Positions 1 to 17,083 of a DNA stretch of 36,827 bases are shown here, piece by piece. The notes under the pieces were generated by a model. The model made no database searches. It had not been told where the DNA came from and was given only the letters and a program-made list of their open reading frames with translations. The first letter of the stretch is position 1, and each line of letters begins with the position of its first letter. The translations under genes were made by a program, and so were the position numbers. Source of the stretch: Promethearchaeota archaeon (GTDB lineage: Archaea; Asgardarchaeota; Lokiarchaeia; Sigyniarchaeales; SOKP01); the NCBI GenBank assembly GCA_016839585.1, contig JAEOTZ010000054.1, positions 1-36,827 of the forward strand. Direction: 5' to 3'.

Positions 1-551
1 GCAATACCATTTATGATACTGTAGATCAGTATGAAAAAGGATTAGGTTCAAAAATAAAAGAGACAATCAAAGAAGTTAAAAAACTAGTTTTATTGAGAGA
101 AATTATAAACCTCCATAATATTAATGGCATTAAAAGCATGAACCAGATAAGAACAATGGTTAAACAAATAAAATCTGGAAAAGATATCCTATCTCCACGT
201 GGATTACCAAATATTAAATTAGTAAAGACAAAGCAATCGGAATGGATCTTATTTGATGGACACCATTCTTTACTTTCTTACATGATTGCTGGAAGGACAT
301 ATTTACATGAGATCCCTCATTTTGTTATTGAAGACGAGAATGGTCATGTAAATGATAAAGAAATTCTTATATTTTTTGGAATTCAACCCAAAAAATTAAA
401 TGATTCTAATTGGAGAAAATATGTAATAAATTGGCAAGCACCGAAAGAAAGACAATTATGTAAACGAGAGCAAAAAAATATGGGTGAGCTCTTAGATTCA
501 ATTAGTGTTTTTTACAATAAAAACAGAAATTATAACATAGTTGATGTATGA
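1..551 (+). CDS. 5'-truncated hypothetical protein with a ParB/sulfiredoxin-like domain
   Basis: The frame is open from base 3 (NTIYDTVDQYEKG...) into the 93..551 ORF, so the gene starts before the window. The segment LPNIKLV...WILFDGHHS resembles the ParB/Srx 'DGHHR' motif. Confidence 0.5.
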   Translation, partial: NTIYDTVDQYEKGLGSKIKETIKEVKKLVLLREIINLHNINGIKSMNQIRTMVKQIKSGKDILSPRGLPNIKLVKTKQSEWILFDGHHSLLSYMIAGRTYLHEIPHFVIEDENGHVNDKEILIFFGIQPKKLNDSNWRKYVINWQAPKERQLCKREQKNMGELLDSISVFYNKNRNYNIVDV

Positions 552-660
552 AATAAATTTTGCATATTCAAAACTTCTTTAAAAAATTATTTCAAAATTA
601 AGGTAAATTTATTTATATTTAGATTTTCTTATTAGTTCTTATAATAGAAGGATATAGAGA

Positions 661-1467
661 GTGGGGATTAAAACGATTGTTATATTATCATATTTTCATG
701 TTAAAATAGGACCAACAATATTTTATTCTTTTCCTAAAGCTCAATTGGATAAAGAATTATCAAATAGAATTTATGAAGGTATGAATCAAGCGAACAAAGA
801 AGAATTTTTTACACAATCATTCGGCAATTTGAAGTTATTAAACTATTACTTTCAAATTCACTCAGATTGGGCTCGGGGTAACACAGAAATATTGATGCTA
901 TCAATAATGATTAATCAGCAAATTTCTCCTGAAATTGAAGAGAACATTTCATCCTTATGTAAAAAGTTTTCAGAAAAAATGCAATCAAATGAAGACATTT
1001 TTACTGGGTTCTACTTAAAGGAACTAAACAATTTTGATAAAAGTGACAGAGAGAAAATAATAAAAAACGAGCTCTTAATCAATGAGTGGGTAAAAGATTT
1101 ATATTGGGAAACTCTGGAGGACACGAGAAAAAAATCAGAAGAACAGAAAATTACATTGTTATTAGACGATAGGTATATTTTTGAATCCTTAGAGCTGATG
1201 TCAAAAGAGCTGAAGAAAATCAGTAGAGAGATAAGTTCAGGTGAGGATTATCTGAAAGCGAACTCTAATATCAGAAATTCAGTTTCAAATTTAAATAAAA
1301 TTATTGATGATTTATATGAAGGATACATAGAAAAAATGACCGAACTTGATATTGAATATGAAAACGGCTTGTTTTCCGCAGAAGAAGAATTGGATACTGA
1401 TATTCAAAAGAGCAAAAAAGAATTAAAAAGAGTTTTAGAAGGAGAGATTAATGAAGAAAAAGAATGA
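661..1467 (+). CDS. uDENN/longin-like domain protein (folliculin/NPR2/SMCR8-like N-terminus) with helical C-terminus
   Basis: N-terminal 'ILSYFHVKIGPTI' and 'FQIHSDWARG' match the F-x4-GP and D-x-ARG signatures of uDENN/longin domains. The C-terminus is acidic and coiled-coil-like. Confidence 0.6.
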   Translation: MGIKTIVILSYFHVKIGPTIFYSFPKAQLDKELSNRIYEGMNQANKEEFFTQSFGNLKLLNYYFQIHSDWARGNTEILMLSIMINQQISPEIEENISSLCKKFSEKMQSNEDIFTGFYLKELNNFDKSDREKIIKNELLINEWVKDLYWETLEDTRKKSEEQKITLLLDDRYIFESLELMSKELKKISREISSGEDYLKANSNIRNSVSNLNKIIDDLYEGYIEKMTELDIEYENGLFSAEEELDTDIQKSKKELKRVLEGEINEEKE

Positions 1468-1576
1468 AATTCAAATTAATTTTGCGATTTTTTCACATGT
1501 TCGTTTAGCATCGCTCTATTTCTAATTAAGAAATATAAAAATTGTAATACTCATAATTAATAATCTTATTTTTTTT

Positions 1577-2098
1577 TTAAACCTTCAACAGCCAATCTAT
1601 CATAATATCTCCAGAACATTTTTTATGAGAATTTAATAAGCATTTATCGATTTCAGGCTCAATTGTATGGTTTATACCCAGAGCATCCAACCAGCAACTA
1701 ACACGGTATATTACGCCACATTCATATTGTTTGTTAAGTCCAATCATTTCCATTCCTTTGTAGGCGAAACATCGGTTCATTTCCCAATGTATTCGATTAT
1801 TTTCAGGGAAGGTATATACAAAGTCCATAAAATCTCCTTTTATTACGCTAAAAGCATTAGTAATAAAATCTTTTAATTGTTCAAATGTTTTGATTTTCAT
1901 GTTCTTCATTCCCATCGCCTTTTTTACCCGCTGCATTTCAATTACTGAAAGAGATTTAATAGCTGCTTTATTTAGTTTGTTAGCAGTATCAATACCTAAT
2001 TCACGGGCGCAATTATAAAACCAGGAGCCATCGTGAGTCATCCAACATTTAACTAGTAGTTCTTTTAATTGATTTTTATTAAGTTGATCAAATAACAT
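1577..2098 (-). CDS. DUF6125-family protein (V4R/ATC-hydrolase-like fold)
   Basis: 'CWMTHDGSWF' motif and conserved Cys (RCFAY, YECG, KCL...KCS). ATG at 2098 is preferred over the TTG at 2119. Confidence 0.65.
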   Translation of the reverse strand: MLFDQLNKNQLKELLVKCWMTHDGSWFYNCARELGIDTANKLNKAAIKSLSVIEMQRVKKAMGMKNMKIKTFEQLKDFITNAFSVIKGDFMDFVYTFPENNRIHWEMNRCFAYKGMEMIGLNKQYECGVIYRVSCWLDALGINHTIEPEIDKCLLNSHKKCSGDIMIDWLLKV

Positions 2099-2223
2099 TA
2101 TTACCATAATAAATATCAAGTTGATAATGCTTAAAAAGTCTCATTGAAACAGAACCTTGTTAAAATTCTTCATGGATGAGTAGGAAACAAAAAACAGAGA
2201 TTATAATCTATAATCTACTTCTT

Positions 2224-4047
2224 CTACTTCTTCTTCTCTTCAAGAGTACTCTTCGTATCGTAGCTATTTTTTAATGATTTTCCTGATTCCCATTCTTTTC
2301 TAAGAATAAATTTCTGAATTAATTCGTTTGCATTTTTTGGTAATTCTTCTTTAAATTCTATATATCTTGGAACCATAAAATAGGCCAAGTTTTGTTGTAG
2401 AAAATTGTGAAATTCTTTGTGAGTAATCGAAGCTCCTTTTTGAATTACAGCACATATTTTTAAATGATTTTCGGAGGATTTGCTATCAGAAACTTCAAAA
2501 ACAGCGCTTTCGACTATAAGTGAATGTGAATTTGCGACTATTTCGATATCCACTGCAAAAAATATCTCCTTTTCTCTATGAATCATGTCTGATTTCCTTC
2601 CTAAATAATATATGAAACCTTCATGGTCTGCATATCCAAAATCGCCAGTGTAAACCCATCGATCTTCTCCTTTTCTTGTTATTGTCTCTTCTTGTAAGTT
2701 ATAGTACTCAAGTTCAAAAGGAAGTCTTGTTCTTGCACAGATTTCACCAATATGATCTCGTCCAGGAGGAAGTTCTTTTCCTTCTGAATCAACAATTTTA
2801 ATTTCAACGCCTCGTGCTGACTTTCCGATAGATCCTAGTTTTCCCCCTTTGGAACCTTCGTTATTTATAGTAAAACCAATACCCTCAACAAGAGACCACA
2901 TTTCAATTATTTGAATTCCAAATCTCCTTTCGAAGGTATCCCATATCTTTTTTAAGGCACCTGCACCGAATGCATATTTAATTGAATGATTTCTATCAAT
3001 TTTTGATGGCAGTTGATTTACAAGCATTGTCAAGTGTGCTCCATAATAACAAAAACCATCAGGTTTATATTTTTCAATATCACTCCAAAAAGTTGAAACA
3101 TCAAATTTCTCTGCGATTATTATCGATCCGTTATGATACATTATTGGAATTATCAAGAAATATCGTTCTAATCCTTGAAATAACGGTAAGGGACAATAAA
3201 ATTTATTAATATTATCGCCAAATCCTAAATCTTTCAATTGCCTTCCTACACTAATTCCTGACAACGTGAAATAGTTCCTATATAGCACTCCTTTTGGAAT
3301 TCCTGTAGTTCCTGATGTATAGGATATTTCAAGAGGATGAAAACTATTCATATGAATATTAGGATTCTCTAAATTTTCAGAAAAGACTTCTGTAAAACTA
3401 GCATATTTATCCTCGTATTTATAATCATTTGGTGCGTTTCGGATAAAAATTTTCTTAATTTTGGGTAAATTTTCGTAAATCTCCTCAACATTCGCAAGAT
3501 ATATATAATCAATAATTAAAATTTCTGAATTGCTATTTTTCAATACATATTCTAGTAAATTCTTTTTTAATAAGTAACTTATTGGTACAAACACGCTACC
3601 GGTTTTTGCAATGGCGAACCAACAAAATAGAGCCCCTGGATTATTTGGAAATATCAAGGAAATATTAGGATTTTTCAATTTTAATTTTTTAATTTGTTTT
3701 ATAAGTCCATTAGCTATCTGATTTGAAATTATATTTACATCTTCATACGTATAAACCTCATTATGATAATAAATGAATGGCTTGTCTTTATTAATTAATG
3801 CTTTACTTTCTATTATTTTTGGTAGTGTAGCATCTTCAATATCGTAAACTTTTGTTAGGTCACTTAAGTTATAGATTTTTCGAATTTCCAAGTGCTCGCC
3901 TTTTAATTCTATCACGACTTCTTCTTTGTCTCTAAAAGGAAAAGCACTATCTTTAGCAATATTACTGGGAATATAGACCCAAAAACTGTCATATTTACGG
4001 TTTCCCGATTTTTTCTTCGAAATTTTACCTTTTCCAGTTTTTATCAT
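2224..4047 (-). CDS. AbrB-like DNA-binding domain fused to a CaiC-like AMP-binding (ANL) acyl-CoA ligase, catalytically degenerate
   Basis: Residues 1-57 contain 'FWVYIPSNIAKDSAFPFRDKEEVVIELKGEHLEIRK' (archaeal AbrB pattern). The ANL motifs YTSGTTGIPKG, YTGD and GRKSD follow. The A10 motif reads LPKNANELIQK with no catalytic Lys. Confidence 0.8.
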   Translation of the reverse strand: MIKTGKGKISKKKSGNRKYDSFWVYIPSNIAKDSAFPFRDKEEVVIELKGEHLEIRKIYNLSDLTKVYDIEDATLPKIIESKALINKDKPFIYYHNEVYTYEDVNIISNQIANGLIKQIKKLKLKNPNISLIFPNNPGALFCWFAIAKTGSVFVPISYLLKKNLLEYVLKNSNSEILIIDYIYLANVEEIYENLPKIKKIFIRNAPNDYKYEDKYASFTEVFSENLENPNIHMNSFHPLEISYTSGTTGIPKGVLYRNYFTLSGISVGRQLKDLGFGDNINKFYCPLPLFQGLERYFLIIPIMYHNGSIIIAEKFDVSTFWSDIEKYKPDGFCYYGAHLTMLVNQLPSKIDRNHSIKYAFGAGALKKIWDTFERRFGIQIIEMWSLVEGIGFTINNEGSKGGKLGSIGKSARGVEIKIVDSEGKELPPGRDHIGEICARTRLPFELEYYNLQEETITRKGEDRWVYTGDFGYADHEGFIYYLGRKSDMIHREKEIFFAVDIEIVANSHSLIVESAVFEVSDSKSSENHLKICAVIQKGASITHKEFHNFLQQNLAYFMVPRYIEFKEELPKNANELIQKFILRKEWESGKSLKNSYDTKSTLEEKKK

Positions 4048-4066
4048 AGATTTTTAAAAAAATTTC

Positions 4067-4099
4067 TTTACTATTGTAAATAAATAATTCCTAACGTAA
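4067..4099. promoter_or_regulatory. Two TTAC-N4-GTAA boxes upstream of the AbrB-ligase gene
   Basis: TTTACTATTGTAAA at 4067-4080 has perfect arms. TTCCTAACGTAA at 4088-4099 has 1 mismatch. The boxes are spaced 20 bp apart, 21-52 nt upstream of the ATG at 4047. Confidence 0.6.
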
Positions 4100-4128
4100 A
4101 AATAATCTTATAATTTTTTTTCGCATTC

Positions 4129-6135
4129 TTACTTTAAAGGAATTTCATCATATTCTTGTTTTATTAGAGGGAATCTGTCAAGATTATAATGAGGAAAATA
4201 AAGAGAAAAAGTGAATTCCTTTTGAAATGATGGTAATGATGCGATTTCTCTATACTTGATCTCATAGGCGATCTTATTTGCTAGATATCTTTGCTCAATA
4301 TCTTTTATAAATAATTGTGCCCCCATTCCTGCTGAATTTCCAATCTGGAAAATGGAGTTTTGTTCAACTTCAGGGAATAAACCAATAAAAGCAGCATTTT
4401 TTTTATTGATATAAGTTCCAAAGGCTCCTGCTAAAAGAACTTGTTCAAGAGATTCCTTTTTTTTATGTTCCATTTCAAGTAATAAATTAGCTGCAGATAA
4501 AAATGCACCTTTCGCTAGTTGAAGCTGATAAATATCTTTATGAGAAATTGTGATTTCCTTAATATTATTATCATTAATATTTTTTTGATATTGTTCTTTG
4601 TCCCATTCGGCTTTATATATAATATAATGGTATCCATCTTCCCTTTTTACAACACGACGATGTTTCATTACTTTTTCTGATTTGATATTAAATTTTCCCG
4701 CACGCATGATGATATTACATTTCAGCATTTCGGCTATAGTGTCAATGAGCCCTGAACCACACAATCCAAGTGGTTTTATGTTTCCTATTACGCCTATTGA
4801 AGGTTCCAAAGTATTTCTATCAATTTTGACTGATTCTATTGCTCCTTCAGAAGCTCGCATTCCATGTAAAATATGAGCACCCTCCAAAGCCGAGCCAGCA
4901 GCACATGAACATGTAACTAATCCTTCATTATTTCCCAACACAAGTTCACCATTAGTACCAATATCAATTAAAAGAGAATATTTATCGTATGTATTGATTT
5001 TAGATGAGATTATACATCCAATTGTGTCTGTTCCTACGTAGCCAGCAATAACAGGAGGAGAATATACATTTACATTGGGATTACATTTTATTCCAAGCAT
5101 ACCCGCACTTACATTAATTGGGGCTTTAAATACTGGAATGTAAGGTGAAACAGCTAAAAATTCTGGGGTTATTCCAAAAAATATGTGATGCATTCCAGTA
5201 TTCCCTACAACAGAAATATCTTTAACACACGAAATAGAAATGTGAGCTTTATCACAACAATCCTCAAGTATATAATTTATAGCATTAATCACTAATTCTT
5301 TTGCTTTATGAATTGCATTATTTTTTACGATATAGGTAATTCTTGAAATAAGATCTTCACCGATAGCCACTTGAGGATTTAACATTGCAGAAACCGCTGC
5401 AATTTCGCCTGTTTTTAAACAAATTAAATATCCAACAATAGTAGTAGTTCCAATATCGATAGCTAATCCAAAAATCTTATTAATTTTATCTCCGGCATCA
5501 ATATCATAAAGAATCCACGGATCTTCCAATGAGAGCTTTCTAAAAAAAGCTGTAACAACACCATCTTCTTTTCTCATAATATGTGGTAATTTTTTAATAA
5601 TGTTATATAGAATATCATTTACATGAAATAGTGTGTGATTTTCATTTATTTTATAATTACTATTTCTTTCTATTATGCCCTCAAATAAACCAGATAAATC
5701 ATTTCTTGGATTACTTAAATCCGCAGAGGTGATCTTACACAGCTGTGAAGTTATTCCTAGATGAAATTTTTCATTACTTGTTATTCCGAGAGATTCTAAA
5801 TCAGCATCTACTAAAATTCTAATTCCTCTCGAAACTAATGAGTCAGTTAAAAAAACTCTTAAATCTCTAAAAATTTTAGTTTGACATGCTAACCTGTATC
5901 CTTCTAATATTTTTTGGCTACTCAAAAATTTTTTTTCTTTTTCTGATGGTTCTGAAATTTTTGGATTAGGATCTAAAACACGAATAATACATTTTCCACA
6001 TGTTCCCTTACCTGCACATAACGCACCTATGGGAAAGTTCAACGCTAAAAGTGATTCATAAACTGTTGAACCCTCAACAACATTTATTCGTTTAGATATT
6101 GGCTCCAAAATGAGTGTAATTCTCTTATTCCCCAT
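4129..6135 (-). CDS. ATP-dependent reductive activator of corrinoid proteins (RACo/RamA-like ASKHA protein, DUF4445) with N-terminal 2Fe-2S domain
   Basis: CAGKGTCGKC...RLACQ 2Fe-2S motif, followed by DIGTTT, DIGTNGE, CAAGSALEG, GLCGSG and LAGAFG. Confidence 0.92.
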   Translation of the reverse strand: MGNKRITLILEPISKRINVVEGSTVYESLLALNFPIGALCAGKGTCGKCIIRVLDPNPKISEPSEKEKKFLSSQKILEGYRLACQTKIFRDLRVFLTDSLVSRGIRILVDADLESLGITSNEKFHLGITSQLCKITSADLSNPRNDLSGLFEGIIERNSNYKINENHTLFHVNDILYNIIKKLPHIMRKEDGVVTAFFRKLSLEDPWILYDIDAGDKINKIFGLAIDIGTTTIVGYLICLKTGEIAAVSAMLNPQVAIGEDLISRITYIVKNNAIHKAKELVINAINYILEDCCDKAHISISCVKDISVVGNTGMHHIFFGITPEFLAVSPYIPVFKAPINVSAGMLGIKCNPNVNVYSPPVIAGYVGTDTIGCIISSKINTYDKYSLLIDIGTNGELVLGNNEGLVTCSCAAGSALEGAHILHGMRASEGAIESVKIDRNTLEPSIGVIGNIKPLGLCGSGLIDTIAEMLKCNIIMRAGKFNIKSEKVMKHRRVVKREDGYHYIIYKAEWDKEQYQKNINDNNIKEITISHKDIYQLQLAKGAFLSAANLLLEMEHKKKESLEQVLLAGAFGTYINKKNAAFIGLFPEVEQNSIFQIGNSAGMGAQLFIKDIEQRYLANKIAYEIKYREIASLPSFQKEFTFSLYFPHYNLDRFPLIKQEYDEIPLK

Positions 6136-6241
6136 ATGAGTATACCTTATAGATTAACATTCTCTTTATAAGAAACAACTTTGCTTACTTATAAATTCAT
6201 TAAAATAAACTCAAAATAGTTAAAGAAATGATTAATTTTTA

Positions 6242-6904
6242 TTAATTCCTTAACCATTTATCGATAATATCAACACCTTCTAAAGCGTCTTTTGCGTAAG
6301 CATCTGCTTTTGTTTCTTCTGCGATTTCAGGCGATACAGCAGCACCTCCCAAAATCACTTTTACCTTATTTGCTAATTCTCCATTTTTTAATAAGGACAC
6401 TGCTCTTTTTATGAAGGGTTCCCCAGAAGAAAGAAGATATGAGATACCAATAACTTTAACATCTGGCATTCGAGCAGCTTCTTCAAATTTTACAGGTTTC
6501 ACATCTATTCCAAGGTCGATAATATCCATACCATAAGATTTCATTAACGCGATTAGAATATTTTTACCCAAATTATGAATATCACCTTCAATTGTCCCGA
6601 TAACTACTTTTCCTGAATAATTCCTAGCTTTAGCTAAACTCCTTCTAGTTTCCTCATCTATACATAGGATTTCTCCCTCCAGAGCTTCTGCCGCTAAAAT
6701 AAGCCCCATTTCTCCCGATTCCGCCAATCCCTTTAAAATACCTTTTTTTATTATTTCGATTACTGGGACTCCTACATCTATTGCTTGCTTTATTGTATCT
6801 TTCATCGAAAAAAAGTCAAGTGAACTAACCGCTTCAATAACGTTATTAATATAATAAAAATGATTTTTTGCTTTCTTTTTATTTTCTAAACTCACTTTTT
6901 CCAT
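6242..6904 (-). CDS. Corrinoid (B12-binding) protein, MtbC/MttC/MetH-cap-like
   Basis: 'GTIEGDIHNLGKNI' DxHxxG motif, 'DLGIDV', 'VILGGA', 'ADAYAKDA'. A GAGGT Shine-Dalgarno favours ATG 6904 over 6925. Confidence 0.9.
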   Translation of the reverse strand: MEKVSLENKKKAKNHFYYINNVIEAVSSLDFFSMKDTIKQAIDVGVPVIEIIKKGILKGLAESGEMGLILAAEALEGEILCIDEETRRSLAKARNYSGKVVIGTIEGDIHNLGKNILIALMKSYGMDIIDLGIDVKPVKFEEAARMPDVKVIGISYLLSSGEPFIKRAVSLLKNGELANKVKVILGGAAVSPEIAEETKADAYAKDALEGVDIIDKWLRN

Positions 6905-6944
6905 TATCAAAATTACCTCTCTCATTTCTTAATAATTGATATTA

Positions 6945-7730
6945 TCAAATGATTAAAACGATACCATGCCAAACAACATAGGGAACAGATTCCTTTGGGT
7001 GCTCGGGATTAATTACAAATGGTGGTTTTTCTCCACATTTAACAGCTGTAGCAAATATATCCACTCCACATGCCTCTAGTGAAGGTCTAGCTCTTAAATA
7101 CTGCCGGCACATTTGATTATCGAGCACAGGACAGGGGGGTATTTTTTTTTGTTGCATTAATTCTTTAAAATATTCTGGAGAAAAAAATCCACAACCAACA
7201 CAAGGCCCACCTTTAAATCCCATAGCAAGATAATATCCCAAATATGTTGCTTCTGCTTCTATCATTGAGACCATTTGATTTAATAAATTTACATCTCCCT
7301 GGACACCGAGAAGAATTCCGGGAAAAATATGGTTTTGTGTCGGTGGATAAAATGTAATTAAAATTGCATGATTATAACAACTAACAATTTCTCTCATCTC
7401 TTCGGTAGTTGGAGAATGTGGAGGACAATTTATACTAGTTCCGTAACCAAAACACACAGGAATTCTACATTTCCACCGTACGCGTGGATCTATTACAATT
7501 TTATCTGTTGTTATTAATTTGGCATGACCAGTAGCTTTCATTTTTGATTTTGTAATTATTTGATCTATGATTTTATTAGATCGTTCAAGGAGCTCAAGAA
7601 AGATCTTTTCATCAGGTTCAACTTTTATTGGAGATGGTGGCCTATCTTTCTTTTTTGGTAATACTCTCCGCCATTTGAAAGATATTTTAGACCATTCTTT
7701 CTCAACTTCAGGTATCAATTTCTGTGCCAT
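6945..7730 (-). CDS. DUF2284-family Cys-rich predicted metal-binding protein
   Basis: 'DPRVRWKC...C..YG...NCPP', 'GGPCVGC', 'RPSLEACGVD' and C-terminal 'GIVLI'. Confidence 0.8.
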   Translation of the reverse strand: MAQKLIPEVEKEWSKISFKWRRVLPKKKDRPPSPIKVEPDEKIFLELLERSNKIIDQIITKSKMKATGHAKLITTDKIVIDPRVRWKCRIPVCFGYGTSINCPPHSPTTEEMREIVSCYNHAILITFYPPTQNHIFPGILLGVQGDVNLLNQMVSMIEAEATYLGYYLAMGFKGGPCVGCGFFSPEYFKELMQQKKIPPCPVLDNQMCRQYLRARPSLEACGVDIFATAVKCGEKPPFVINPEHPKESVPYVVWHGIVLII

Positions 7731-7794
7731 TAATTTTTAACCTTGTTTATTTTTTAATTAAATACTTATTTATTTATTAAAATATTATACTTTC

Positions 7795-8000
7795 TTACGT
7801 ACGTAAAAATCTTTCTATTGTAGTAAAAAAATATTAAGTAATTATGAAACCATCATAATTTATAAAACTTATTTGTTTTTTACGTACGTAAATCATAATA
7901 ACAGGAATAAAATAATAATTAGTTAATCAGCTTAAAAAAAAAGAAGTATTGACAAGATTATATGTAATATTTACGTTTTATGATAATTACATTTGTAATT
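7795..8000. promoter_or_regulatory. Three TTAC-N4-GTAA palindromes in the divergent intergenic region upstream of the corrinoid operon
   Basis: TTACGTACGTAA at 7795-7806 and at 7880-7891, and AATTACATTTGTAATT at 7985-8000. Confidence 0.7.
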
Positions 8001-8175
8001 AGGAAAATAAATCTAAATAGGGAGATTTTTACTTATCATTAAACATCATTTTTTTCCTTTTTTTCAAACGTTTAAAAGTAATAACTATTATATCTGACAA
8101 AAATGTGGGTTTATATAGGTGCATTTTTTTATCATTATTTGGTATTACTAAACTAAAATAGTATAGAAGATAAGA

Positions 8176-9240
8176 ATGGGCTTATTTAAGAGAAGGCGAG
8201 AAAAACCGGAAAAGATCTTTAAGATAAATGATTTAGTGGACTTAAGATTAATTAATAAAAAGACTTATATTTATGTTAAGGATAAGCCATTCATTATTTG
8301 TGCTCATTTATTAATGAATATTCCAGTTGAGAGTATTGACCGTTATGATGAAATAAAATCAATTGATGAGACAGTAGAATTGTTTAAGTCAACTGAAAAT
8401 GTTAAATATATGATATCTCCGGAAGAGGAGTTCATGGGACATTGCTCAAACATTCAGGCATTTTTCGAGAACGGATTAAATACAGACATCTTGCATACAA
8501 ATATAGCATTTCCATTATTAAAAGAATTAGTACAAATAGGATACGAGTTAGCGCGAAGAATCTTCAAGGAAGAAATAGTAATAAGATTTAATGAGGGCAC
8601 TAAAAGTTCAAGATTTTTCTTAAATTCAGGAGGATATCTCGATTATCTTAATGAAGAAGAGAAACAGGCATTAAGAGGCTATAAATCTACATGGTTTCAA
8701 AGAGTGGTCTCTCCTGATTTTATGTTTAAATTAGTCATTTTGGGCGATGATAATGTAGGAAGATCAACATTAGCATTAGACTATTTAAACTCACGGGATT
8801 ATAATCCTCGTCCTCCTATTGGAACAAATCTTGCTATAAAAGACATAGTATTAAATAACAATAATATTAGATTACAAATTTGGTTTCTTTCTAATCTTAA
8901 TATACATGAAAAACTGTGGAGATTATATTTATCTGGATCTTTAGGAGCATTAATCTTATATGATATAACTAACACCAATTCTATGAAAAATATACCTAAA
9001 TGGATTCAGAGAATTAGAGAAAATAAATGGATTCAATCCAGAGGAGATATTCCAATACTCTTGGTAGGGAATAAACTTGATTTACAAGAGAATCGAGTAG
9101 TATCTAAAGAAGAGGTAATTAAAATCAAAAGTAAACACAATCTAACAGAAAGTATGGAAATTTCTTTGAAAACAGGTGAAAATTGTGTGGAAATGTTTGA
9201 TGAAATTACAAAGTTGATATATCAAGCTAATTTTTTTTGA
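8176..9240 (+). CDS. Lokiarchaeal N-terminal domain fused to a degenerate Rab-like small GTPase
   Basis: The N-terminal 'SPEEEFMGHCSNIQA...LH.NIAFPLLKEL' domain is one I recall from Loki LRR proteins. The C-terminal half has FKLVILGDDNVGRST, RLQIWF, LILYDIT, LVGNKLD and EISLKTG. Confidence 0.8.
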   Translation: MGLFKRRREKPEKIFKINDLVDLRLINKKTYIYVKDKPFIICAHLLMNIPVESIDRYDEIKSIDETVELFKSTENVKYMISPEEEFMGHCSNIQAFFENGLNTDILHTNIAFPLLKELVQIGYELARRIFKEEIVIRFNEGTKSSRFFLNSGGYLDYLNEEEKQALRGYKSTWFQRVVSPDFMFKLVILGDDNVGRSTLALDYLNSRDYNPRPPIGTNLAIKDIVLNNNNIRLQIWFLSNLNIHEKLWRLYLSGSLGALILYDITNTNSMKNIPKWIQRIRENKWIQSRGDIPILLVGNKLDLQENRVVSKEEVIKIKSKHNLTESMEISLKTGENCVEMFDEITKLIYQANFF

Positions 9241-9248
9241 ACTCTTGT

Positions 9249-9866
9249 TTAACTAGATTTCTGAAAGAATTTTATTGTAAAGTCTATCAAATTTGAGATA
9301 TATTCAATGAGTTCTTCGTCATTATCAAAAAAGTCCATTACAAATATGTGATGATGAATTAAGGCTTCAATTAGATTGTAAATGAAGGTAAACCTTTTAA
9401 TAAGTCTTTCTTCGGGAATTTTTTTGAACACCATTGTACTTGTCCTAAGATTTTTAGACGTGTCTTTACATATTTCGAGAACCTTATTTTGAAAGGCTTT
9501 CCGTACTTCTTTATGAGATAATATTGAATGTCTTAAAGCTATGCGATACCCTAAATTTTTCCGTTGATTTTCAATATCTTTTGAGATAAAAGGTTTAAAA
9601 ATTTCGGGAATATTGCTAAGGTCGAAAGCTTTGAAATTTTCAATATCTAAAACCATATCTTTTGATTTTTCGAAGTATTTGATTAGAATATCAGATTTTC
9701 CTTTGGGAAAATAATGATATATTGTTCCTACACTAATTTGAGCTTTTTTTGCTATTTTATTTGTGCTGGCTCTATGGAAACCTTTCTCTAATATGAGTTT
9801 AAAAAAGGAATCGTAAATTAGTTTAATTTTTTCTTCCTTATTCCTCTCAATTTTTCGTTTTGACAT
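9249..9866 (-). CDS. TetR/AcrR-family transcriptional regulator
   Basis: HTH 'KGFHRASTNKIAKKAQISVGTIYHYFPKGK'. The likely start is ATG 9866 (MSKRK); the longer ORF would overlap the divergent gene and the operators. Confidence 0.9.
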   Translation of the reverse strand: MSKRKIERNKEEKIKLIYDSFFKLILEKGFHRASTNKIAKKAQISVGTIYHYFPKGKSDILIKYFEKSKDMVLDIENFKAFDLSNIPEIFKPFISKDIENQRKNLGYRIALRHSILSHKEVRKAFQNKVLEICKDTSKNLRTSTMVFKKIPEERLIKRFTFIYNLIEALIHHHIFVMDFFDNDEELIEYISNLIDFTIKFFQKSS

Positions 9867-9875
9867 GATCAATCC

Positions 9876-9947
9876 TATTGAGTTACTACTCAATAACTTT
9901 AAATATGAATGATACCTTATATATTTTATTGAGCTAATGCTCAATAA
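9876..9947. promoter_or_regulatory. Two perfect TetR-type operators TATTGAGY-N4-RCTCAATA
   Basis: TATTGAGT-TACT-ACTCAATA at 9876-9895 and TTATTGAGC-TAAT-GCTCAATAA at 9926-9947, between the divergent tetR and DUF998 genes. Confidence 0.8.
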
Positions 9948-9982
9948 GAAAATTTGAAAAAGTAAATAAGGAGGTAAAATAA

Positions 9983-10618
9983 GTGGAAAGATTGAATGGT
10001 TTTTATGAAAAATTCCCTGGAAGTTATTTTGCGTATATTGCATTTATTTTCGCAGTAATTTTTATGTTAATTTCGGTAATACTTTACAATGATCCAGCAT
10101 TTAGCCTTTTTACTCATTATATCAGTGATTTGGGTGCTTCAACAAAAGGTTCGTCACTTTTGTGGAATACTAGTATGATTATTGTTGCTCCCTTGAGAGT
10201 TGTTTTTGGATTTTACCTACTGACCTTTTTAAAGACAAAAGGTTCTAATGAAAAATCTATCAAAATAACAGCTTATACCATTGTTATTGCTGCTGTAGGA
10301 TCTGTCATCATTGCCTTAAATCCTCATGATGTCTCGCGAATGTTTCACATGATTGGTGCATTTATTTATTTCTTCGGTGTTGTTATCATTCAAGTAAAGA
10401 TATCCAAAATGGAGCTAAATGCAGAAGATATACCAAAATACTTACCAGTCATCGGATTAGTTGTAGTTGTAAATTACGCATTATTCCTTAGCTTTGAAAT
10501 TTCTGAAATAATTTCAGATTTATTCAGGTTTTTAGCATGTTTTTTTGAATGGATGGCTCTATTTAGTATATTAGGATGGCTTTTAATACATGGATTGTAT
10601 CTCCATAAAATAAAATAA
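9983..10618 (+). CDS. DUF998-family membrane protein
   Basis: About 6 hydrophobic helices, 'HYISDLGA' motif, conserved His in 'FHMIGA', and AAGGAGGT Shine-Dalgarno before the GTG. Confidence 0.7.
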   Translation: MERLNGFYEKFPGSYFAYIAFIFAVIFMLISVILYNDPAFSLFTHYISDLGASTKGSSLLWNTSMIIVAPLRVVFGFYLLTFLKTKGSNEKSIKITAYTIVIAAVGSVIIALNPHDVSRMFHMIGAFIYFFGVVIIQVKISKMELNAEDIPKYLPVIGLVVVVNYALFLSFEISEIISDLFRFLACFFEWMALFSILGWLLIHGLYLHKIK

Positions 10619-11739: not shown

Positions 11740-12081
11740 ATGTCTCAAGAAGAAGATATTAGAGAAAGTTTTCAAGTGTTGGATGTTATTAAACTCAAGT
11801 TAAATGAAATCCTAATTAAAGGAATCAATAGCTTAAGTAATGAAAACAACTCAGAACTCGTTAATTTAACACAAAAGTTAGAGGAGATGAATTTTTCGAC
11901 TCTTAGCAAACACTTAAAATCATTTAATGAGAAATTGAAAAAAATGATTCAGAAACCAGTTCCAATGAATTTAAAGAAAGATATTTCAATAGAAATTTTG
12001 AAGATAATAAGTATAGCTAGAATACTTGAACGGATTATGACACTTGAAAGTGTTAAAAAAATTCTAAAAAGGGGGAATTAA
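11740..12081 (+). CDS. Hypothetical helical protein, first gene of the MoxR-VWA operon
   Basis: 113-aa ORF, 4 nt from the next gene. Confidence 0.7.
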   Translation: MSQEEDIRESFQVLDVIKLKLNEILIKGINSLSNENNSELVNLTQKLEEMNFSTLSKHLKSFNEKLKKMIQKPVPMNLKKDISIEILKIISIARILERIMTLESVKKILKRGN

Positions 12082-12085
12082 ACTA

Positions 12086-13228
12086 GTGAATGTTCAATTA
12101 GAAAAAGTAGCCGTCCAAATAAAGGATTATACTGAAAGTTTGGCCTTTAATGGATTGAATTTTGTTTCAAATGATAACATTAAAAAAATAGAATTTTTCT
12201 TACATAATGCATCTCAGTTAGAAGCATATCGATTGGCCACATCATTAAGATATTTACATATTGAATTAAAACGATTTCTTAAGAATCGAAGTATTTTCAA
12301 TATCGAAAGGTATGTCTTTTTCCTTAGCAACTGTTGGCTTTTAAGTCGAGCTTTCGTCTCTGAAAAAGACCTTAGGGATAAGAACCCAGACATTTTTAAC
12401 AGCTTAATGGGAACTCAATTAAATCCTAAAATAAGAAGTAAATTCATTCTCAAGGTAGTCGGAATAGAGAAAATACACCTAGAAGGAACTATTGTAGGAT
12501 TTGTTTTTTATTTTCTATCCTTATTTGGAAAGACAAGAAATAAAATATTAAAGTGGAACTTAATGCTTCCATATAAAACTGGAGTGACTCCAGAATCCTT
12601 ATTACATCATGATCTACCTAATTCAGATCCCTCAAGCGTGGTTAACACCATTCTTTCAAAGTATATTGAAGCAGACAACTTACCCTACGTTGAGAAGGAG
12701 GATATTATTTACTTGGAAAAAAATCCTAAATCTAAAATATATATTGATGAAGAATCATCCGAGGATACTCACGTTTCTATCAAAAAATTAGATAAATATT
12801 ATCTTAATGCAAAAGAAATTTATCAAAAAAATTTCAAAGATTATGAGGTAACTCCTTTTGATTTACCAGCAAGCATTTTGGATTATTTGTATGTTAAAGA
12901 TGTATATGTGATAGATTTTCAAAAAGAAGGAATAGAAGGAGATAGAACTCCTACTTTTGTTTTTGAACTAACTCATAGGGAAGATTATCCACTAGTTATC
13001 AGAATTCCCGAGAAGCAAGGAAATCTAAAATTAATTGAAGAATTCAAAAAATTAAAGGGTAGAAGGACCTCCATTGATGGGATTTTTTGCAAGATAATTC
13101 CGGAAAATGGGCAACTTAGTTTATATCCCCTTAGTATTATTAATAATAATCAAATTTCATATCCAAATCTTAAAAAAATTGCTCGAGATAATAGAGCATT
13201 GTTAAAATCAACGTATAAAATAAAATAA
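12086..13228 (+). CDS. Hypothetical protein in the MoxR-VWA operon
   Basis: 380-aa ORF with GGGGG Shine-Dalgarno-like sequence upstream. No motif recognised. Confidence 0.75.
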   Translation: MNVQLEKVAVQIKDYTESLAFNGLNFVSNDNIKKIEFFLHNASQLEAYRLATSLRYLHIELKRFLKNRSIFNIERYVFFLSNCWLLSRAFVSEKDLRDKNPDIFNSLMGTQLNPKIRSKFILKVVGIEKIHLEGTIVGFVFYFLSLFGKTRNKILKWNLMLPYKTGVTPESLLHHDLPNSDPSSVVNTILSKYIEADNLPYVEKEDIIYLEKNPKSKIYIDEESSEDTHVSIKKLDKYYLNAKEIYQKNFKDYEVTPFDLPASILDYLYVKDVYVIDFQKEGIEGDRTPTFVFELTHREDYPLVIRIPEKQGNLKLIEEFKKLKGRRTSIDGIFCKIIPENGQLSLYPLSIINNNQISYPNLKKIARDNRALLKSTYKIK

Positions 13229-13260
13229 TTAAAAATTAAAAAAAAAAGAAATGATAAATT

Positions 13261-14589
13261 ATGGAAAAAAAAAAAGTACCACAGAAATCAACTACACCTA
13301 AATCTTTTACAAAAATAACACCCCCAGCTTCAAAAAATACATCACCATCTCCTCCAAAAAAGAAACCTCCAACTTCCAAGACTACAACAACAAAAAAACC
13401 AACTCCAGCTCTCCGTAAAATTCCTAAAATATCACTTGGGTCTAATAAAAAATCAAGTAAAACAGAAAATGAGAAAATTCGATTTCCTGCTGAAGAATTG
13501 CATAAAGAAGAATTAAAAGCATTAATTCAAAATGATACGTATCCAAAACCCCCAAATTGGCAATTATCACCAAAGATGGTTGAATTATTTATTACAGGTT
13601 CGAATGAGGAATTTCCATTAAAAGTAAATGGTACTCAGAAAAAAATAAAAATTTCTACTAAATTCTATGGACAACGGGATCTCATTCAGAAATCAATTGT
13701 GACACTAGCGAGCGAACGAGCACTCATGTTAATAGGAGAACCAGGAACAGCAAAATCTTGGCTATCAGAACATCTTTCTGCTGCGATTAGCGGCACGAGT
13801 ACATATCTAATTCAAGGAACGGCGGGAACAACTGAGGACCAAATTAGATATTCTTGGAATTATGCCCTCCTCGTTTCAGAAGGTCCTAGTCCAGAATCAT
13901 TAGTACCTTCCCCTACGATAAATGCAATGAGAGAAGGGAGGATATTAAGATTTGAAGAATTAACACGGTGTCCCCAAGAAATTCAGGATAGCATGATATC
14001 GATCCTCTCAGAAAAGGTCATCCCTATCGCGGAGTTGGGTTCTGAGTATTTAATATTCGGAATTCCAGGATTCAATGTAGTTGCCAGTGCTAATGATCGA
14101 GATAGAGGGGTAAATGAAATGAGTGCGGCTCTAAAACGCCGTTTCAATTTTATATACATTCCGGTAATTCAAGATAAGAGTTTAGAAAGAAAGATTGTAT
14201 TGCAACGAACGAATGATTTATTGACAAAGATAGGTTTTAAAATCCAGATTCCCGAGGATACATTAGATTTGTTAATTACTGTTTTTCAAGAATTGAGAAC
14301 AGGACGTAGCACGAGTGGCGGACGATTTACTCCTATCTCGACTGTAATGTCCACTTCAGAAGAGATTTCCTTGCTCTTCGATAGCGCTATATATGCAAAA
14401 TTCTTTGGTAAATCAGAGGTCCAACCGAAACATGTAGCTATGAACCTTATAAGTGCAATTGTAAAGGATGATAAAGAAAACCTTCCTAAATTAAGAGAAT
14501 ATTTTAATATGGTCGCTAGGGTGAGAGCAAACAAATCAGATACTTGGAAAGAATTTGCCAATGCATTCAAAAAACACGCAACTTATTAA
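13261..14589 (+). CDS. MoxR-type AAA+ ATPase, YehL-like
   Basis: Walker A 'GEPGTAKSWLSEHL', 'IQGTAGTTEDQIRYSWNYALL', Walker B 'RFEELTR', and 'ANDRDRGVNEMSAALKRRFNF'. Confidence 0.9.
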   Translation: MEKKKVPQKSTTPKSFTKITPPASKNTSPSPPKKKPPTSKTTTTKKPTPALRKIPKISLGSNKKSSKTENEKIRFPAEELHKEELKALIQNDTYPKPPNWQLSPKMVELFITGSNEEFPLKVNGTQKKIKISTKFYGQRDLIQKSIVTLASERALMLIGEPGTAKSWLSEHLSAAISGTSTYLIQGTAGTTEDQIRYSWNYALLVSEGPSPESLVPSPTINAMREGRILRFEELTRCPQEIQDSMISILSEKVIPIAELGSEYLIFGIPGFNVVASANDRDRGVNEMSAALKRRFNFIYIPVIQDKSLERKIVLQRTNDLLTKIGFKIQIPEDTLDLLITVFQELRTGRSTSGGRFTPISTVMSTSEEISLLFDSAIYAKFFGKSEVQPKHVAMNLISAIVKDDKENLPKLREYFNMVARVRANKSDTWKEFANAFKKHATY

Positions 14590-14594
14590 AATCC

Positions 14595-17078
14595 ATGAGT
14601 GATACATACTTAAGTGCTGCTAATCTCAAAAAGATACTTTTTGAGATAGGAACTTCATTGGGGGTTGACAATTCAGATATTGATGCCAAGGTTGATAAAG
14701 TAAAGAAATCCGAAATAATTTATTTACCCATTCGTCACCATTCACCAGGCTCCACAATATTAGTAAAGAAATGGATTGAAAAGTACGAACCTAAGTTAAT
14801 CTTGGTTGAAGGTCCAGCCTTAGCAGATAATTTAATCAAGTACATGGTTGAACGAGATACAATCCCTCCAATTGCGATTCTTTCGCTTTTTGCAGATACC
14901 AATAATACCTTTGGTTTGAATGGAATTCTTAGTCCTGATAAATTAGTACCCGCAAAATTTGAAGCATATTATCCCTTTGTATCATACTCTCCTGAACTCG
15001 TCGCTCTCTCAGAAGCCATTAAAAAAAAAATTCCTATTCATTTCATTGATCTACCACTCACGGGACTAATTTCATGTTCTTCTGCGAATTTAAAGGATCC
15101 TTCTAAAAAGGTAGATCTATTCAATATAGAGGGAGAATCTATTTACAATTTAAGCAAATTCTACAAAAAATTTGCTCAAGTATTTGATTTTGAGGATTTC
15201 AATGAATCTTGGGAGACTTTATTTGAAATAGGTGCCAATAAATCCGATATTGACGAGCTGAGGGAGAGTATGCTCTTATTTTGTGCGTTTATTCGACAGA
15301 CAACAGACATGAAAATACTCAAAGCAAATAGTACGCTTACAAGAGAATCATATATGAAACACAACATCGAAACTTATAAGAAGAAATATAAGGTTAAGGA
15401 CAAAGATATACTGGTAATAACTGGTGGTATACACTCTATTGCATTGCCAGATACTCTTCCGCAATCATATCCTTTTCCGACAAAACAATTGATTAATTCG
15501 TTAGTACCCTATTCTTATTACAGAATAAGTCAAAAATCGGGTTATATGTCCGGAAATCAAGCACCCCAATTTTATAATAGTATTTGGAAAAAATTCACTT
15601 CACAAGTGGAGCATCCATATTCAGCAGTTGCATTAGAATTTATTACTGATATATTTAAAGATGCCCGTGTAAAGGGAAATGTCGTATCCATTTCCGATTC
15701 TATTAATTCTTACCAGGGTGCTAAGATGTTGGCAATGTTACGAAGACGGGAAGAACCTGATCTCAAGGATGTTATCGATTCCATTTATATGGTATTGGTT
15801 AAGGGTAATCCAGAAATTGAGGGAAAATATCTTGACTCCTTGATTCAAGAAAAATCTATCGGGTATAAAGTTGGTAAGGTTACCAAGAATATTGGCAGAT
15901 TACCCCTTCAAAAGGATTTTTACCTCCAGTTGGAAGCTCATGGGATTGATCCTGAGGAAAAGGTCCAACAAAAGATTATTAATTTACGGGAAGAAGCCGA
16001 ATCGAAATTATCACAATTATTCTGGAAAATTAAATTTTTAGGAATTGATTACGCACACCGCTTGCTAGGTCCCGATATACTTAAGGGAGATACCGGAATA
16101 TTCACTGAAAAATGGAGCCTAAAATGGAATCCAAGAATTGATGCGAAGCTCGTGGAATTGAGCACGTATGGAGCAACCTTGGAAGAAGCCAGTAAAAACA
16201 TGTTAGTCGAAGAAACCAAGAAGAACGTGAAAAATTTCGGCATTATTACGAATCTTTTATTTCAAAGTCTTTCAATGGGTTATACTGATCATTTCAAGGA
16301 TTTACACAAAGAGTGCTTAAACTCGCTTGAAGTGGATAACCAGTTTTTAAGCTTAACAGAGGGATTCTTTAATTTAATAATGATCTTTCAATTCATGGCG
16401 ATGATGGGTTGTTCGAAAGATGATATGGATCTCATGGAACAACTCATTCAGCGGAGCTATTACACCTGCTGTTTTTCCATACCAAATTTTGCAAATCCGC
16501 CGAGTGGAGATGAAGTAAAATATATTGATGCAATGAAAATGCTAGCAAACACGTTAATATCAATTCAAAATATCGAGATCGATTTGAATGTATATATTGA
16601 AAGCATAAACACTTGTGTTGAAAATACAAGTAACGAGTTCATCAAAGGGGGGACTGTTGGTATTCTCTATTTATTAAACTACATGAAGGTTAAGGAAATC
16701 GAAACGTTAATTTATGAATATTTGAATAGTATTGACTCTATAAAAGTAAAAATTGGTGATTTAATTCGAGGACTCATTTATGTATGTCAAGCAAAGCTAA
16801 TATTCAATCAAGATATAATACGGGTGTTAGCTAAAGTTGTTGAGACTATAGAGTGGGAGGTGTTTTCTGCCATTTTACCGCCATTGAGAAAAGCATTTTC
16901 CGAACTTCACCCAACTGAATACGATATTTTCGTGGAAAAACTGGCTGAACATTATGGATTAATAAAAAGGAAGCATGCGGAATTGATGGATATTGTTGAA
17001 GAGGATGTAAAAAATTTCTTCAAGATCGTAGATGAGAAGGTGAAAAAAATATTTGAAGAATGGTTTGGAGAGGTATAA
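14595..17078 (+). CDS. DUF5682 / YehM-like protein
   Basis: 'PIRHHSPG', 'ILVEGP', 'YYPF..YSPE..A', 'FIDLP', 'RE.YM', 'VITGGIH', 'PYSYYR...SGY.SG'. ATG 14595 follows the ATPase stop. Confidence 0.85.
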   Translation: MSDTYLSAANLKKILFEIGTSLGVDNSDIDAKVDKVKKSEIIYLPIRHHSPGSTILVKKWIEKYEPKLILVEGPALADNLIKYMVERDTIPPIAILSLFADTNNTFGLNGILSPDKLVPAKFEAYYPFVSYSPELVALSEAIKKKIPIHFIDLPLTGLISCSSANLKDPSKKVDLFNIEGESIYNLSKFYKKFAQVFDFEDFNESWETLFEIGANKSDIDELRESMLLFCAFIRQTTDMKILKANSTLTRESYMKHNIETYKKKYKVKDKDILVITGGIHSIALPDTLPQSYPFPTKQLINSLVPYSYYRISQKSGYMSGNQAPQFYNSIWKKFTSQVEHPYSAVALEFITDIFKDARVKGNVVSISDSINSYQGAKMLAMLRRREEPDLKDVIDSIYMVLVKGNPEIEGKYLDSLIQEKSIGYKVGKVTKNIGRLPLQKDFYLQLEAHGIDPEEKVQQKIINLREEAESKLSQLFWKIKFLGIDYAHRLLGPDILKGDTGIFTEKWSLKWNPRIDAKLVELSTYGATLEEASKNMLVEETKKNVKNFGIITNLLFQSLSMGYTDHFKDLHKECLNSLEVDNQFLSLTEGFFNLIMIFQFMAMMGCSKDDMDLMEQLIQRSYYTCCFSIPNFANPPSGDEVKYIDAMKMLANTLISIQNIEIDLNVYIESINTCVENTSNEFIKGGTVGILYLLNYMKVKEIETLIYEYLNSIDSIKVKIGDLIRGLIYVCQAKLIFNQDIIRVLAKVVETIEWEVFSAILPPLRKAFSELHPTEYDIFVEKLAEHYGLIKRKHAELMDIVEEDVKNFFKIVDEKVKKIFEEWFGEV

Positions 17079-17083
17079 TATAA

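Follow-up and report, generated by a model that had tools for sequence, protein, structure and literature searches.

Several kinds of transcription regulator combine a DNA-binding domain with an enzyme fold that reads a metabolite, as in the BirA, MocR/GabR, ROK and PutA-type regulators. Others carry a sensor-type domain C-terminal to an AbrB-type DNA-binding domain, as in SpoVT from Bacillus subtilis, where the sensor is a GAF domain, and in the archaeal AbrB-PhoU fusions. Here we describe a protein of related architecture, P0001, encoded in a 36,827-nucleotide stretch of DNA from a Promethearchaeota archaeon (GenBank contig JAEOTZ010000054.1, positions 1 to 36,827; hereafter the window). Its gene lies at 1577-8000 in a cluster that also encodes a DUF2284 protein, a small corrinoid protein and a RACo-type activase. 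P0001 joins a predicted AbrB-like domain to the AMP-binding body of an ANL ligase, and a palindromic box, TTAC-N4-GTAA, precedes both its own gene and the first gene of the cluster. We consider it probable that P0001 represents an Asgard-restricted family of autoregulated one-component regulators with a pseudo-ligase as sensor, and that one clade of this family controls a corrinoid module without a methyltransferase gene. The evidence throughout is computational, and the related genomes share ancestry.

P0001 departs from SpoVT and the AbrB-PhoU proteins in both of its parts. Its putative sensor is an ANL fold of ~540 residues, not a GAF or PhoU domain, and its N-terminal domain belongs to a divergent ‘FPF’ subfamily that is missed by the Pfam model PF04014. 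BirA, which is both biotin protein ligase and repressor, has an adenylate-forming active site in a class II aminoacyl-tRNA synthetase-like fold, carries a winged helix and is catalytically active. P0001 differs from it in fold and in DNA-binding domain, and has lost the catalytic lysine and other motifs, as have the pseudo-enzyme sensors of the MocR type. With the ANL acyl-coenzyme A (CoA) ligases (4wv3 and others) P0001 shares the two-subdomain AMP-binding fold, the P-loop, the glutamate of motif A5 and the TGD of motif A7, but it lacks the A10 lysine, its A4, A5 and A8 motifs are eroded, and it has both an extra N-terminal domain of DNA-binding type and a W586/D597 tail.

The cluster itself is reminiscent of MtaABC with RamA, and of acetogen O-demethylases with a RACo-type activase, in that a small His-on corrinoid protein and an ATP-dependent activase are encoded together. 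Unlike these corrinoid methyltransferase systems, it has no MT1/MT2 methyltransferase of the URO-D, MtaB or MttB type; the partner is DUF2284, and the putative dedicated regulator is of a new type. A one-component regulator with an enzyme-derived sensor is an already known kind, but three features appear to be undescribed: an ANL fold in the sensor role, an operator that can be defined, and a corrinoid cassette under its control. We know of no regulator in which an ANL fold is the sensor module, and full-text literature searches returned no paper on an AbrB+AMP-binding regulator. How Asgard archaea regulate transcription has hardly been explored, and a regulator family whose operator and candidate target operons can be read from genomes offers a concrete entry point.

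The fusion protein and its family

The fusion gene and the part of it that encodes the N-terminal domain are as follows:

2224..4047, minus strand: fusion protein P0001, 607 amino acids (aa), a continuous open reading frame (ORF) with Pfam AMP-binding (PF00501, E 1e-48) and AMP-binding_C (PF13193, E 1.1e-6) domains
3868..4047, minus strand: N-terminal swapped-hairpin (AbrB/MazE/SpoVT-like) domain, residues 1 to ~60, as predicted by an AlphaFold2 model

The AMP-binding profile begins at residue 85, leaving an N-terminal extension that is kept throughout the family, with Y19, W23, P27, F36, P37 and F38 invariant. A search of 5.8 billion proteins returned ~111 proteins of ~600 aa, with 41-93% identity to P0001 across 96-100% of its length. 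Beyond these, identity falls sharply to 32% or less, and the matches are ordinary ligases of 480-530 aa without the extension. The union of AbrB-like and ANL parts in one polypeptide, the hallmark of a one-component architecture, is therefore conserved in all ~111 members. Family loci were gathered from assemblies as well as 301 genomes of the phylum; a locus search over genome contigs returned mostly generic ANL ligases (2 of 80 loci belonged to the family), and a genome protein search was used instead. The family occurs in 24 of the 301 genomes and in 22 of the 68 from one taxonomic family, with one to three copies per genome, and among the organisms searched it was found only in Asgard archaea.

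In a maximum-likelihood tree, the loci that link the fusion gene to DUF2284, corrinoid protein (CoP) and RACo genes all fall inside one clade of 17 rows (support 100/100). Eleven corrinoid-linked loci form a subclade within it (support 96/95), and the sister subclade consists of two identical corrinoid-linked rows (L008 and L134) and four loci without corrinoid genes. The original prediction had tied the fusion to corrinoid genes; this linkage holds for one derived clade, at 13 of the 27 loci on the tree, and does not extend to the basal lineages, which have no corrinoid genes nearby and lie beside acyl-CoA/β-oxidation-type genes or ABC transporters. Neither RACo nor a corrinoid protein is encoded next to about half of the family. 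In L001 the fusion gene comes first in a series of FAD_binding_4, CCG, OYE and AMP-binding genes; in L003 it leads DUF35/thiolase/NMO genes, with SDR/enoyl-CoA hydratase genes in divergent orientation. The fusion gene is divergent from a Liv-type ABC transporter in L005 and adjoins a peptide ABC transporter in L002 and L136.

The AlphaFold2 model of the N-terminal domain, computed with the family alignment as input, has a mean predicted local distance difference test score (pLDDT) of 84.8. Its β-β-α-β-β topology, with strands at residues 8-12, 21-25, 44-49 and 52-57 and a helix at 28-31, is that of a swapped-hairpin half-barrel. When the model was compared exhaustively with 48,161 PDB representatives using VIA-align, only 10 chains reached a Z of at least 2 (2.1-3.9), and all 10 are AbrB, SpoVT, MazE, AbrB-type VapB, C56 or 5itj. 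The SpoVT structure 2w1t is among the structural matches, and the best match has a Z of 3.9 with a root-mean-square deviation of 2.2 Å over 46 residues. The top rows of a Foldseek search were likewise AbrB-type VapB, MazE and SpoVT, at weak E-values of 0.1-1. It is the exclusivity of the AbrB-type matches, not the size of the scores, that argues for the predicted fold.

Homologs of the domain point to its origin. The N-domain profile matched 445 proteins among 1.84 billion representatives, and those outside the fusion family are mostly stand-alone proteins of 55-100 aa that share a “YIPS..DS.FPF” signature. PF04014 matches two of ten tested stand-alone homologs weakly (E 0.002-0.004), below its cut-off. 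The N-terminal domain is therefore a divergent ‘FPF’ branch of the swapped-hairpin superfamily that an ANL gene has acquired. P0001 is the sole protein in its genome with this domain. Locus L002 also contains an AbrB(MazE_antitoxin)+PhoU gene, and hhalign found no match between the N-domain profile and its single AbrB-PhoU N-terminus, a negative that carries no information because the template is one sequence. A protein-atlas feature search with residues 1-62 gave no usable match.

The domain is also predicted to form a homodimer. The model reached an ipSAE of 0.52, compared with 0.00 for the best control. Among proteins of solved structure, 20 of 30 homodimers and 1 of 23 single-chain proteins attained this mark. 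Contacts agreed between runs to at least 98%, the pLDDT of the partner was 73-74, and the interface comprises residues 1-11, 21-28 and 35-58. This result may reflect likeness to solved AbrB-type dimers and is not proof of binding. A 163-aa protein, P0147, contains two FPF-type AbrB-like domains in tandem in one chain, an arrangement consistent with a domain that acts as a dimer.

The ligase body has retained some motifs of the ANL fold and lost others. Alignment with the solved anthranilate-CoA ligase 4wv3 places Leu 576 of P0001 at the position of the A10 catalytic lysine (GK opposite EL), in agreement with the original prediction that this lysine is lacking. Across 106 aligned family members the position is occupied by Leu (41), Phe (27), Glu (19), Met (8), Arg (7), Lys (2), Ser (1) and Thr (1), whereas out-group ligases have Lys or Arg, with Arg in the nearest ones. 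Motif A4, PLFH with an out-group His, reads PLFQ in 85 of 111 members; motif A5, YGxTE in the out-group, has become W-(S/A/T)-x-(V/M/A)-E; and the Arg, Asp and Gly of motif A8 (GRxxDxxxxxGxN), canonical in the out-group, all vary within the family. P0001 itself departs from the canonical motifs with PLFQ at A4, WSLVE at A5 and GRKSDMIHREKEIF at A8. The nucleotide-binding motifs are kept in family and out-group alike: the A3 P-loop (YTSGTTGIPKG at residue 243) has K252 in 111 of 111 members, the A5 glutamate E388 is present in 110 of 111, and A7 (YTGD at 466) has D469 in 109 of 111. The C-terminal subdomain is conserved in the family, including the W586/D597 tail.

Four ordinary ANL paralogs in the same genome all keep PLFH, YG(L/M)TE, a GGENI-type A8 and GK or MK at A10. 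The closest non-fused paralog (G000:C47:185301-186833, plus strand; 516 aa, E 2e-103 to the family profile) has a complete set of canonical motifs and would be a natural active counterpart with which to compare the pseudo-ligase. The best NCBIfam matches of the ligase body are PRK06187, PRK06155 and CaiC PRK08008, all far under their cut-offs (266 bits against 476, for example). The earlier hint of a CaiC-like substrate finds no support, as ‘CaiC-like’ is a generic best-match label that is given in sources also to ordinary out-group ligases.

At the level of motifs, this pattern suggests retained nucleotide binding with relaxed constraint on catalysis and domain alternation, the signature of a pseudo-enzyme whose activity has probably been lost. 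The alternative is a bifunctional enzyme-repressor analogous to BirA, in which the ANL body still makes an acyl-adenylate or acyl-CoA, slowly or by way of a substitute residue, and the bound intermediate or product serves as co-repressor or inducer; P0001 would then be an enzyme of the pathway as well as its regulator. The invariance of the P-loop Lys (111 of 111), the near-invariance of E388 and D469 and the conserved C-terminal subdomain would all suit such an enzyme, as would the fusion genes that head acyl-CoA enzyme operons in L001 and L003. Nine members have Arg or Lys at A10, and the nearest out-group ligases have Arg too. However, replacement of the A10 Lys lowers adenylation by ANL enzymes by orders of magnitude, and the A4 His, A5, A8 and A10 have degenerated together and differ from one member to another, as expected under relaxed catalytic constraint. 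We regard an active enzyme-repressor as unlikely, and the pseudo-ligase sensor as the better account of P0001.

The TTAC-N4-GTAA box

The box, TTACNNNNGTAA, has four matches in the window against 0.56 expected from shuffled sequence, all of them in the two promoter regions of the cassette; the same palindrome thus precedes the first gene and the fusion gene, as originally noted. The individual copies, including one with a mismatch, are as follows (none is assigned a strand):

4068..4079: perfect box and proposed auto-operator, at 21-32 nt before the ATG of the fusion gene
4088..4099: copy with one mismatch, reading TTACGTTAGGAA on the minus strand and spaced 20 bp from its perfect neighbor
7795..7806: perfect box TTACGTACGTAA, at 65-76 nt before the ATG of DUF2284 and the proposed operator for the corrinoid genes
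7880..7891: second box, identical to the 7795 copy, 85 bp further upstream
7987..7998: third box TTACATTTGTAA, situated between the divergently transcribed genes; it may be a chance match and is missing from the closest relative

The closest relative, L126, has only two boxes in the region upstream of DUF2284. The box at 7987-7998 also lies ~180 bp upstream of the divergent gene at 8176-9240 (plus strand), which encodes a protein with a GTPase domain.

The box accompanies the fusion gene in relatives as well, in line with the original prediction. Of 28 non-identical regions preceding fusion genes, 21 have a perfect box no more than 100 nt before the start codon, compared with a mean of 0.10 of 28 for shuffled regions and with 2 of 126 for the other ORFs of the same loci. 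When all 256 four-base half-sites were enumerated with spacers of 0-8, TTAC-N4-GTAA ranked first, at 21 of 27 foreground and 4 of 121 background regions. The extended consensus is tTTAC-N4-GTAAa, with a variable N4. The boxes of the fusion genes span -64 to -18, and 13 of 24 lie at -28 to -36, as in the window. Boxes paired at a distance of 20 bp or 42 bp are found repeatedly among the relatives; a 20-bp pair, as in the window, is present in L005 and L100.

The box also marks the candidate target promoters. Among distinct upstream regions of cassette-type DUF2284 genes it is present at -73 to -102 in 25 of 25 (23 perfect and 2 with one mismatch), usually in the form TTACGnnnGTAA, and in many cassettes a second box follows ~85 bp farther out, at about -160 to -189. 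No box, even with one mismatch allowed, precedes two diverged DUF2284-CoP pairs (55-58% identity) that have neither RACo nor the fusion; these pairs provide a small natural control that points the expected way. In L005 an extra box (9716) lies ~110 bp upstream of the Liv-type ABC binding-protein gene, in L002 a box (14300) lies in the divergent promoter of the peptide ABC transporter, and L136 likewise has one beside its transporter. The family would have re-used one pair of operator and DNA-binding domain next to acyl-CoA genes, ABC transporters of two kinds and a corrinoid cassette. The comparative record upstream of fusion genes (21 of 28) and DUF2284 genes (25 of 25) is that of a cognate operator. 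A box that is near-universal at the fusion gene and also precedes DUF2284 in the corrinoid clade fits, as far as genome comparison can indicate, autoregulation together with control of the adjacent operon.

In the whole genome of 3.45 Mb the box occurs 63 times, with 12 copies outside long ORFs, four of which are those of the cassette. These counts led us to reject the possibility that the box is a general promoter element. The other eight intergenic copies are at G000 C3:81955, C9:16899, C60:53476, C67:1192, C67:45559, C85:683, C87:53056 and C90:118878. The C60:53476 copy lies 32 nt upstream of a 151-aa ORF, and those on C3 and C9 are within ~2 kb of ANL paralog genes. Most of the eight are without the flanking T/A of the extended consensus, and they could be further regulon members or chance matches.

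These distributions bear on two further explanations. P0001 might be an ordinary or specialized ligase-family enzyme of the corrinoid pathway, with an N-terminal β-domain that docks other proteins such as RACo or the corrinoid protein, and with the box being bound by another factor or serving as a promoter element. The fusion gene is indeed the fourth, closely spaced gene of the cassette, its N-terminal domain goes unmatched by PF04014, and barrels related to swapped hairpins are also protein-binding modules. Yet half of the family lacks a neighboring gene for RACo or a corrinoid protein, the box accompanies the fusion gene in loci without any corrinoid genes, no other gene consistently adjoins it, and with 12 intergenic copies it is too rare for a general promoter element. 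All of this makes a role purely as a pathway enzyme quite improbable. Recent common descent of promoters, without function, would suit close relatives that share entire intergenic regions (the window, L097 and L098, for example), but it is the least credible explanation, since the box persists where fusion proteins are only 40-50% identical, neighbors are wholly different and flanking intergenic sequence is unalignable, since conservation is limited to the 4+4 half-sites and the flanking T/A, with N4 variable, and since control upstream regions of the same loci rarely have a box (2 of 126 and 4 of 121).

Boxes of another kind may accompany the stand-alone relatives of the N-terminal domain. 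Upstream of the homologs in L210 and L211 no TTAC-N4-GTAA was found. In L211, GTAC-type palindromes (AGTACTTAGTACT and TTACTTAAGTAC) are repeated at 2850-3000, upstream of the stand-alone 62-aa homolog P0144, whose gene adjoins TnpB/IS605-type genes.

Proposed mode of regulation

From the architecture, the eroded motifs and the distribution and conservation of the box, we infer the following mechanism for a regulator with a pseudo-ligase sensor. The N-terminal swapped hairpin would dimerize and bind the palindrome tTTAC-N4-GTAAa, and higher oligomers may form on paired boxes. The ANL fold would keep its nucleotide-binding motifs (P-loop, A5 Glu and A7 TGD) and have lost the residues for adenylation and domain alternation; it is this combination that argues for a ligand sensor and against a ligase. 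The ligand would be a carboxylic acid with or without ATP, an acyl-adenylate or an acyl-CoA, a class suggested by the fold and by the acyl-CoA and amino-acid/peptide-transport neighborhoods of the basal members. Its binding in the ANL pocket would modulate DNA binding.

At its own gene, P0001 is proposed to bind the box overlapping the promoter, resulting in autoregulation that is probably repressive. Repression is suggested because this box sits at the place expected for the TATA element and transcription factor B recognition element (BRE) of an mRNA with a short leader or none. In the corrinoid clade, the regulator would also occupy one box or two, immediately before the BRE/TATA-like element of the DUF2284-CoP-RACo operon, which in the window reads “GAAAG-TATAATAT”. 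The position of these boxes would be compatible with repression or activation. The four genes would travel together as a cassette.

Several observations weigh against a DNA-binding pseudo-ligase, and most concern the N-terminal domain. The AbrB domain of the original prediction finds backing in the topology of the model and in its AbrB-type structural matches but not in Pfam, where PF04014 has no match to residues 1-90 even at E up to 10. The N-domain profile, compared with PDB sequences, found only noise and no solved AbrB sequence. The fold-match scores are low in absolute terms (Z of at most 3.9, Foldseek E of at least 0.1), as is expected for ~50 residues. In the ligase body, the nucleotide-binding motifs are kept, and with A10 Arg in 7 members and Lys in 2, residual or altered catalysis is possible. 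At the level of loci, 7 of the 28 relatives have no perfect box within 100 nt upstream, most of them carrying one-mismatch copies; the related genomes are not independent, and the locus counts overstate the number of independent observations. The fusion gene follows RACo after only 81 bp, so that it might be no more than the operon's fourth enzyme gene.

If P0001 does sense a ligand through its ANL fold, a large and versatile pocket that accommodates acids, adenylates and CoA esters would be added to the natural scaffolds for biosensors. The ligand of the regulator would also provide the shortest route to the substrate of an uncharacterized cassette.

The corrinoid cassette and DUF2284

The region 1577-8000 contains five minus-strand ORFs with a G+C content of ~30%, and ORF and Pfam analyses confirm the five co-oriented genes originally noted. 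Besides the fusion gene these are:

6945..7730, minus strand: DUF2284 protein, 261 aa, first gene of the cassette (Pfam PF10050, E 4.5e-30)
6242..6925, minus strand: small corrinoid protein of the MtaC/MtbC/MtgC type, 227 aa (Pfam B12-binding, E 1.9e-18)
4129..6135, minus strand: RACo/AcsV-type ATP-dependent reductive activase of corrinoid proteins, 668 aa (Pfam Fer2, RACo_middle and RACo_C_ter)
1577..2119, minus strand: DUF6125 gene, 3' of the fusion gene in the same orientation (Pfam PF19620, E 1.4e-10)

The conserved unit consists of four genes, the fusion gene included, and not five, because DUF6125 follows the fusion gene only in the window genome and in its closest relative, L126. The five-gene system of the original prediction is reduced accordingly; DUF6125 was rejected as a member, as its downstream position is not conserved among relatives. 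The remaining DUF2284-CoP-RACo-fusion unit behaves, judged by gene order, as a cassette, because it is present between different flanks in the window, L004 and L006. Loci L135 and L133 are syntenic with L004 (CoA-transferase A/B ... fusion, HTH, PEMT/ICMT) without the DUF2284-CoP-RACo trio, which suggests that the trio may have been inserted or deleted as a block.

Two components typical of a corrinoid methyltransferase system are present. The DxHxxG motif of the corrinoid protein reads GDIHNLG, indicating a His-on protein, and the protein matches NCBIfam TIGR02370 with E 1.7e-28, under the cut-off of that model. The reductive activase has the RACo domains and is closest to NCBIfam AcsV (E 2.4e-133, also under the cut-off). 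The MT1/MT2 component is missing: by Pfam, no URO-D, MttB or MtaB-type gene occurs in the cassette or in the 36.8-kb window. The URO-D genes of the genome, seven in number, and its single MttB gene are on other contigs. Several small corrinoid proteins are also encoded elsewhere, as is a second RACo, so that the genome has two RACo genes with the cassette copy included. An Rfam search over positions 1-10000 found no cobalamin riboswitch and no other RNA family.

The DUF2284 protein has seven invariant cysteines, and its AlphaFold2 model has a mean pLDDT of 83.8. The top 50 VIA-align matches of the model are all chains of the nitroreductase superfamily (Z 5.8-8.2) and include the B12 enzymes QueG (Z 6.5) and PceA (Z 6.3); at such Z, a nitroreductase-like match to a predicted model is an assignment of fold, not of function. 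Full-text literature searches returned no paper on DUF2284 function, and the DUF2284 domain is also found fused to ArsM-like methyltransferases in selenoproteins (PMC13188914). Across the window and loci L146, L206 and L207, DUF2284 and the small corrinoid protein form a conserved pair even without RACo or the fusion, and in a Dehalococcoidia contig a URO-D methyltransferase gene follows the pair.

DUF2284 may be an unrecognized component of corrinoid systems. The substrates originally suggested, namely a methylated carboxylate of the carnitine/betaine type or a methoxy-aromatic acid, find no specific support, because the cassette has no recognizable methyltransferase gene and because the DUF2284 model is nitroreductase-like. 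A fuller account, plausible but tentative, is that the ANL fold became the ligand sensor of a new archaeal AbrB-ANL family, one clade of which regulates a mobile corrinoid cassette with DUF2284 as a non-methyltransferase catalytic partner, related in fold to QueG and RdhA. If DUF2284 does act as such a partner, the cassette would perform a new kind of corrinoid-dependent chemistry, such as the transfer of a methyl group to or from a metal(loid) or some unusual acceptor.

Beyond the cassette, the divergent ORF at 8176-9240 (plus strand) encodes a 354-aa protein with a C-terminal GTPase domain of the Ras/Roc/Arf type and ~180 N-terminal residues without assignment. Further along, 11740-18538 (plus strand) is a tight operon for a MoxR-type AAA_5 ATPase, a DUF5682 protein and a CoxE-like VWA protein, in which these genes are preceded by two ORFs of 113 and 380 aa without a Pfam match.

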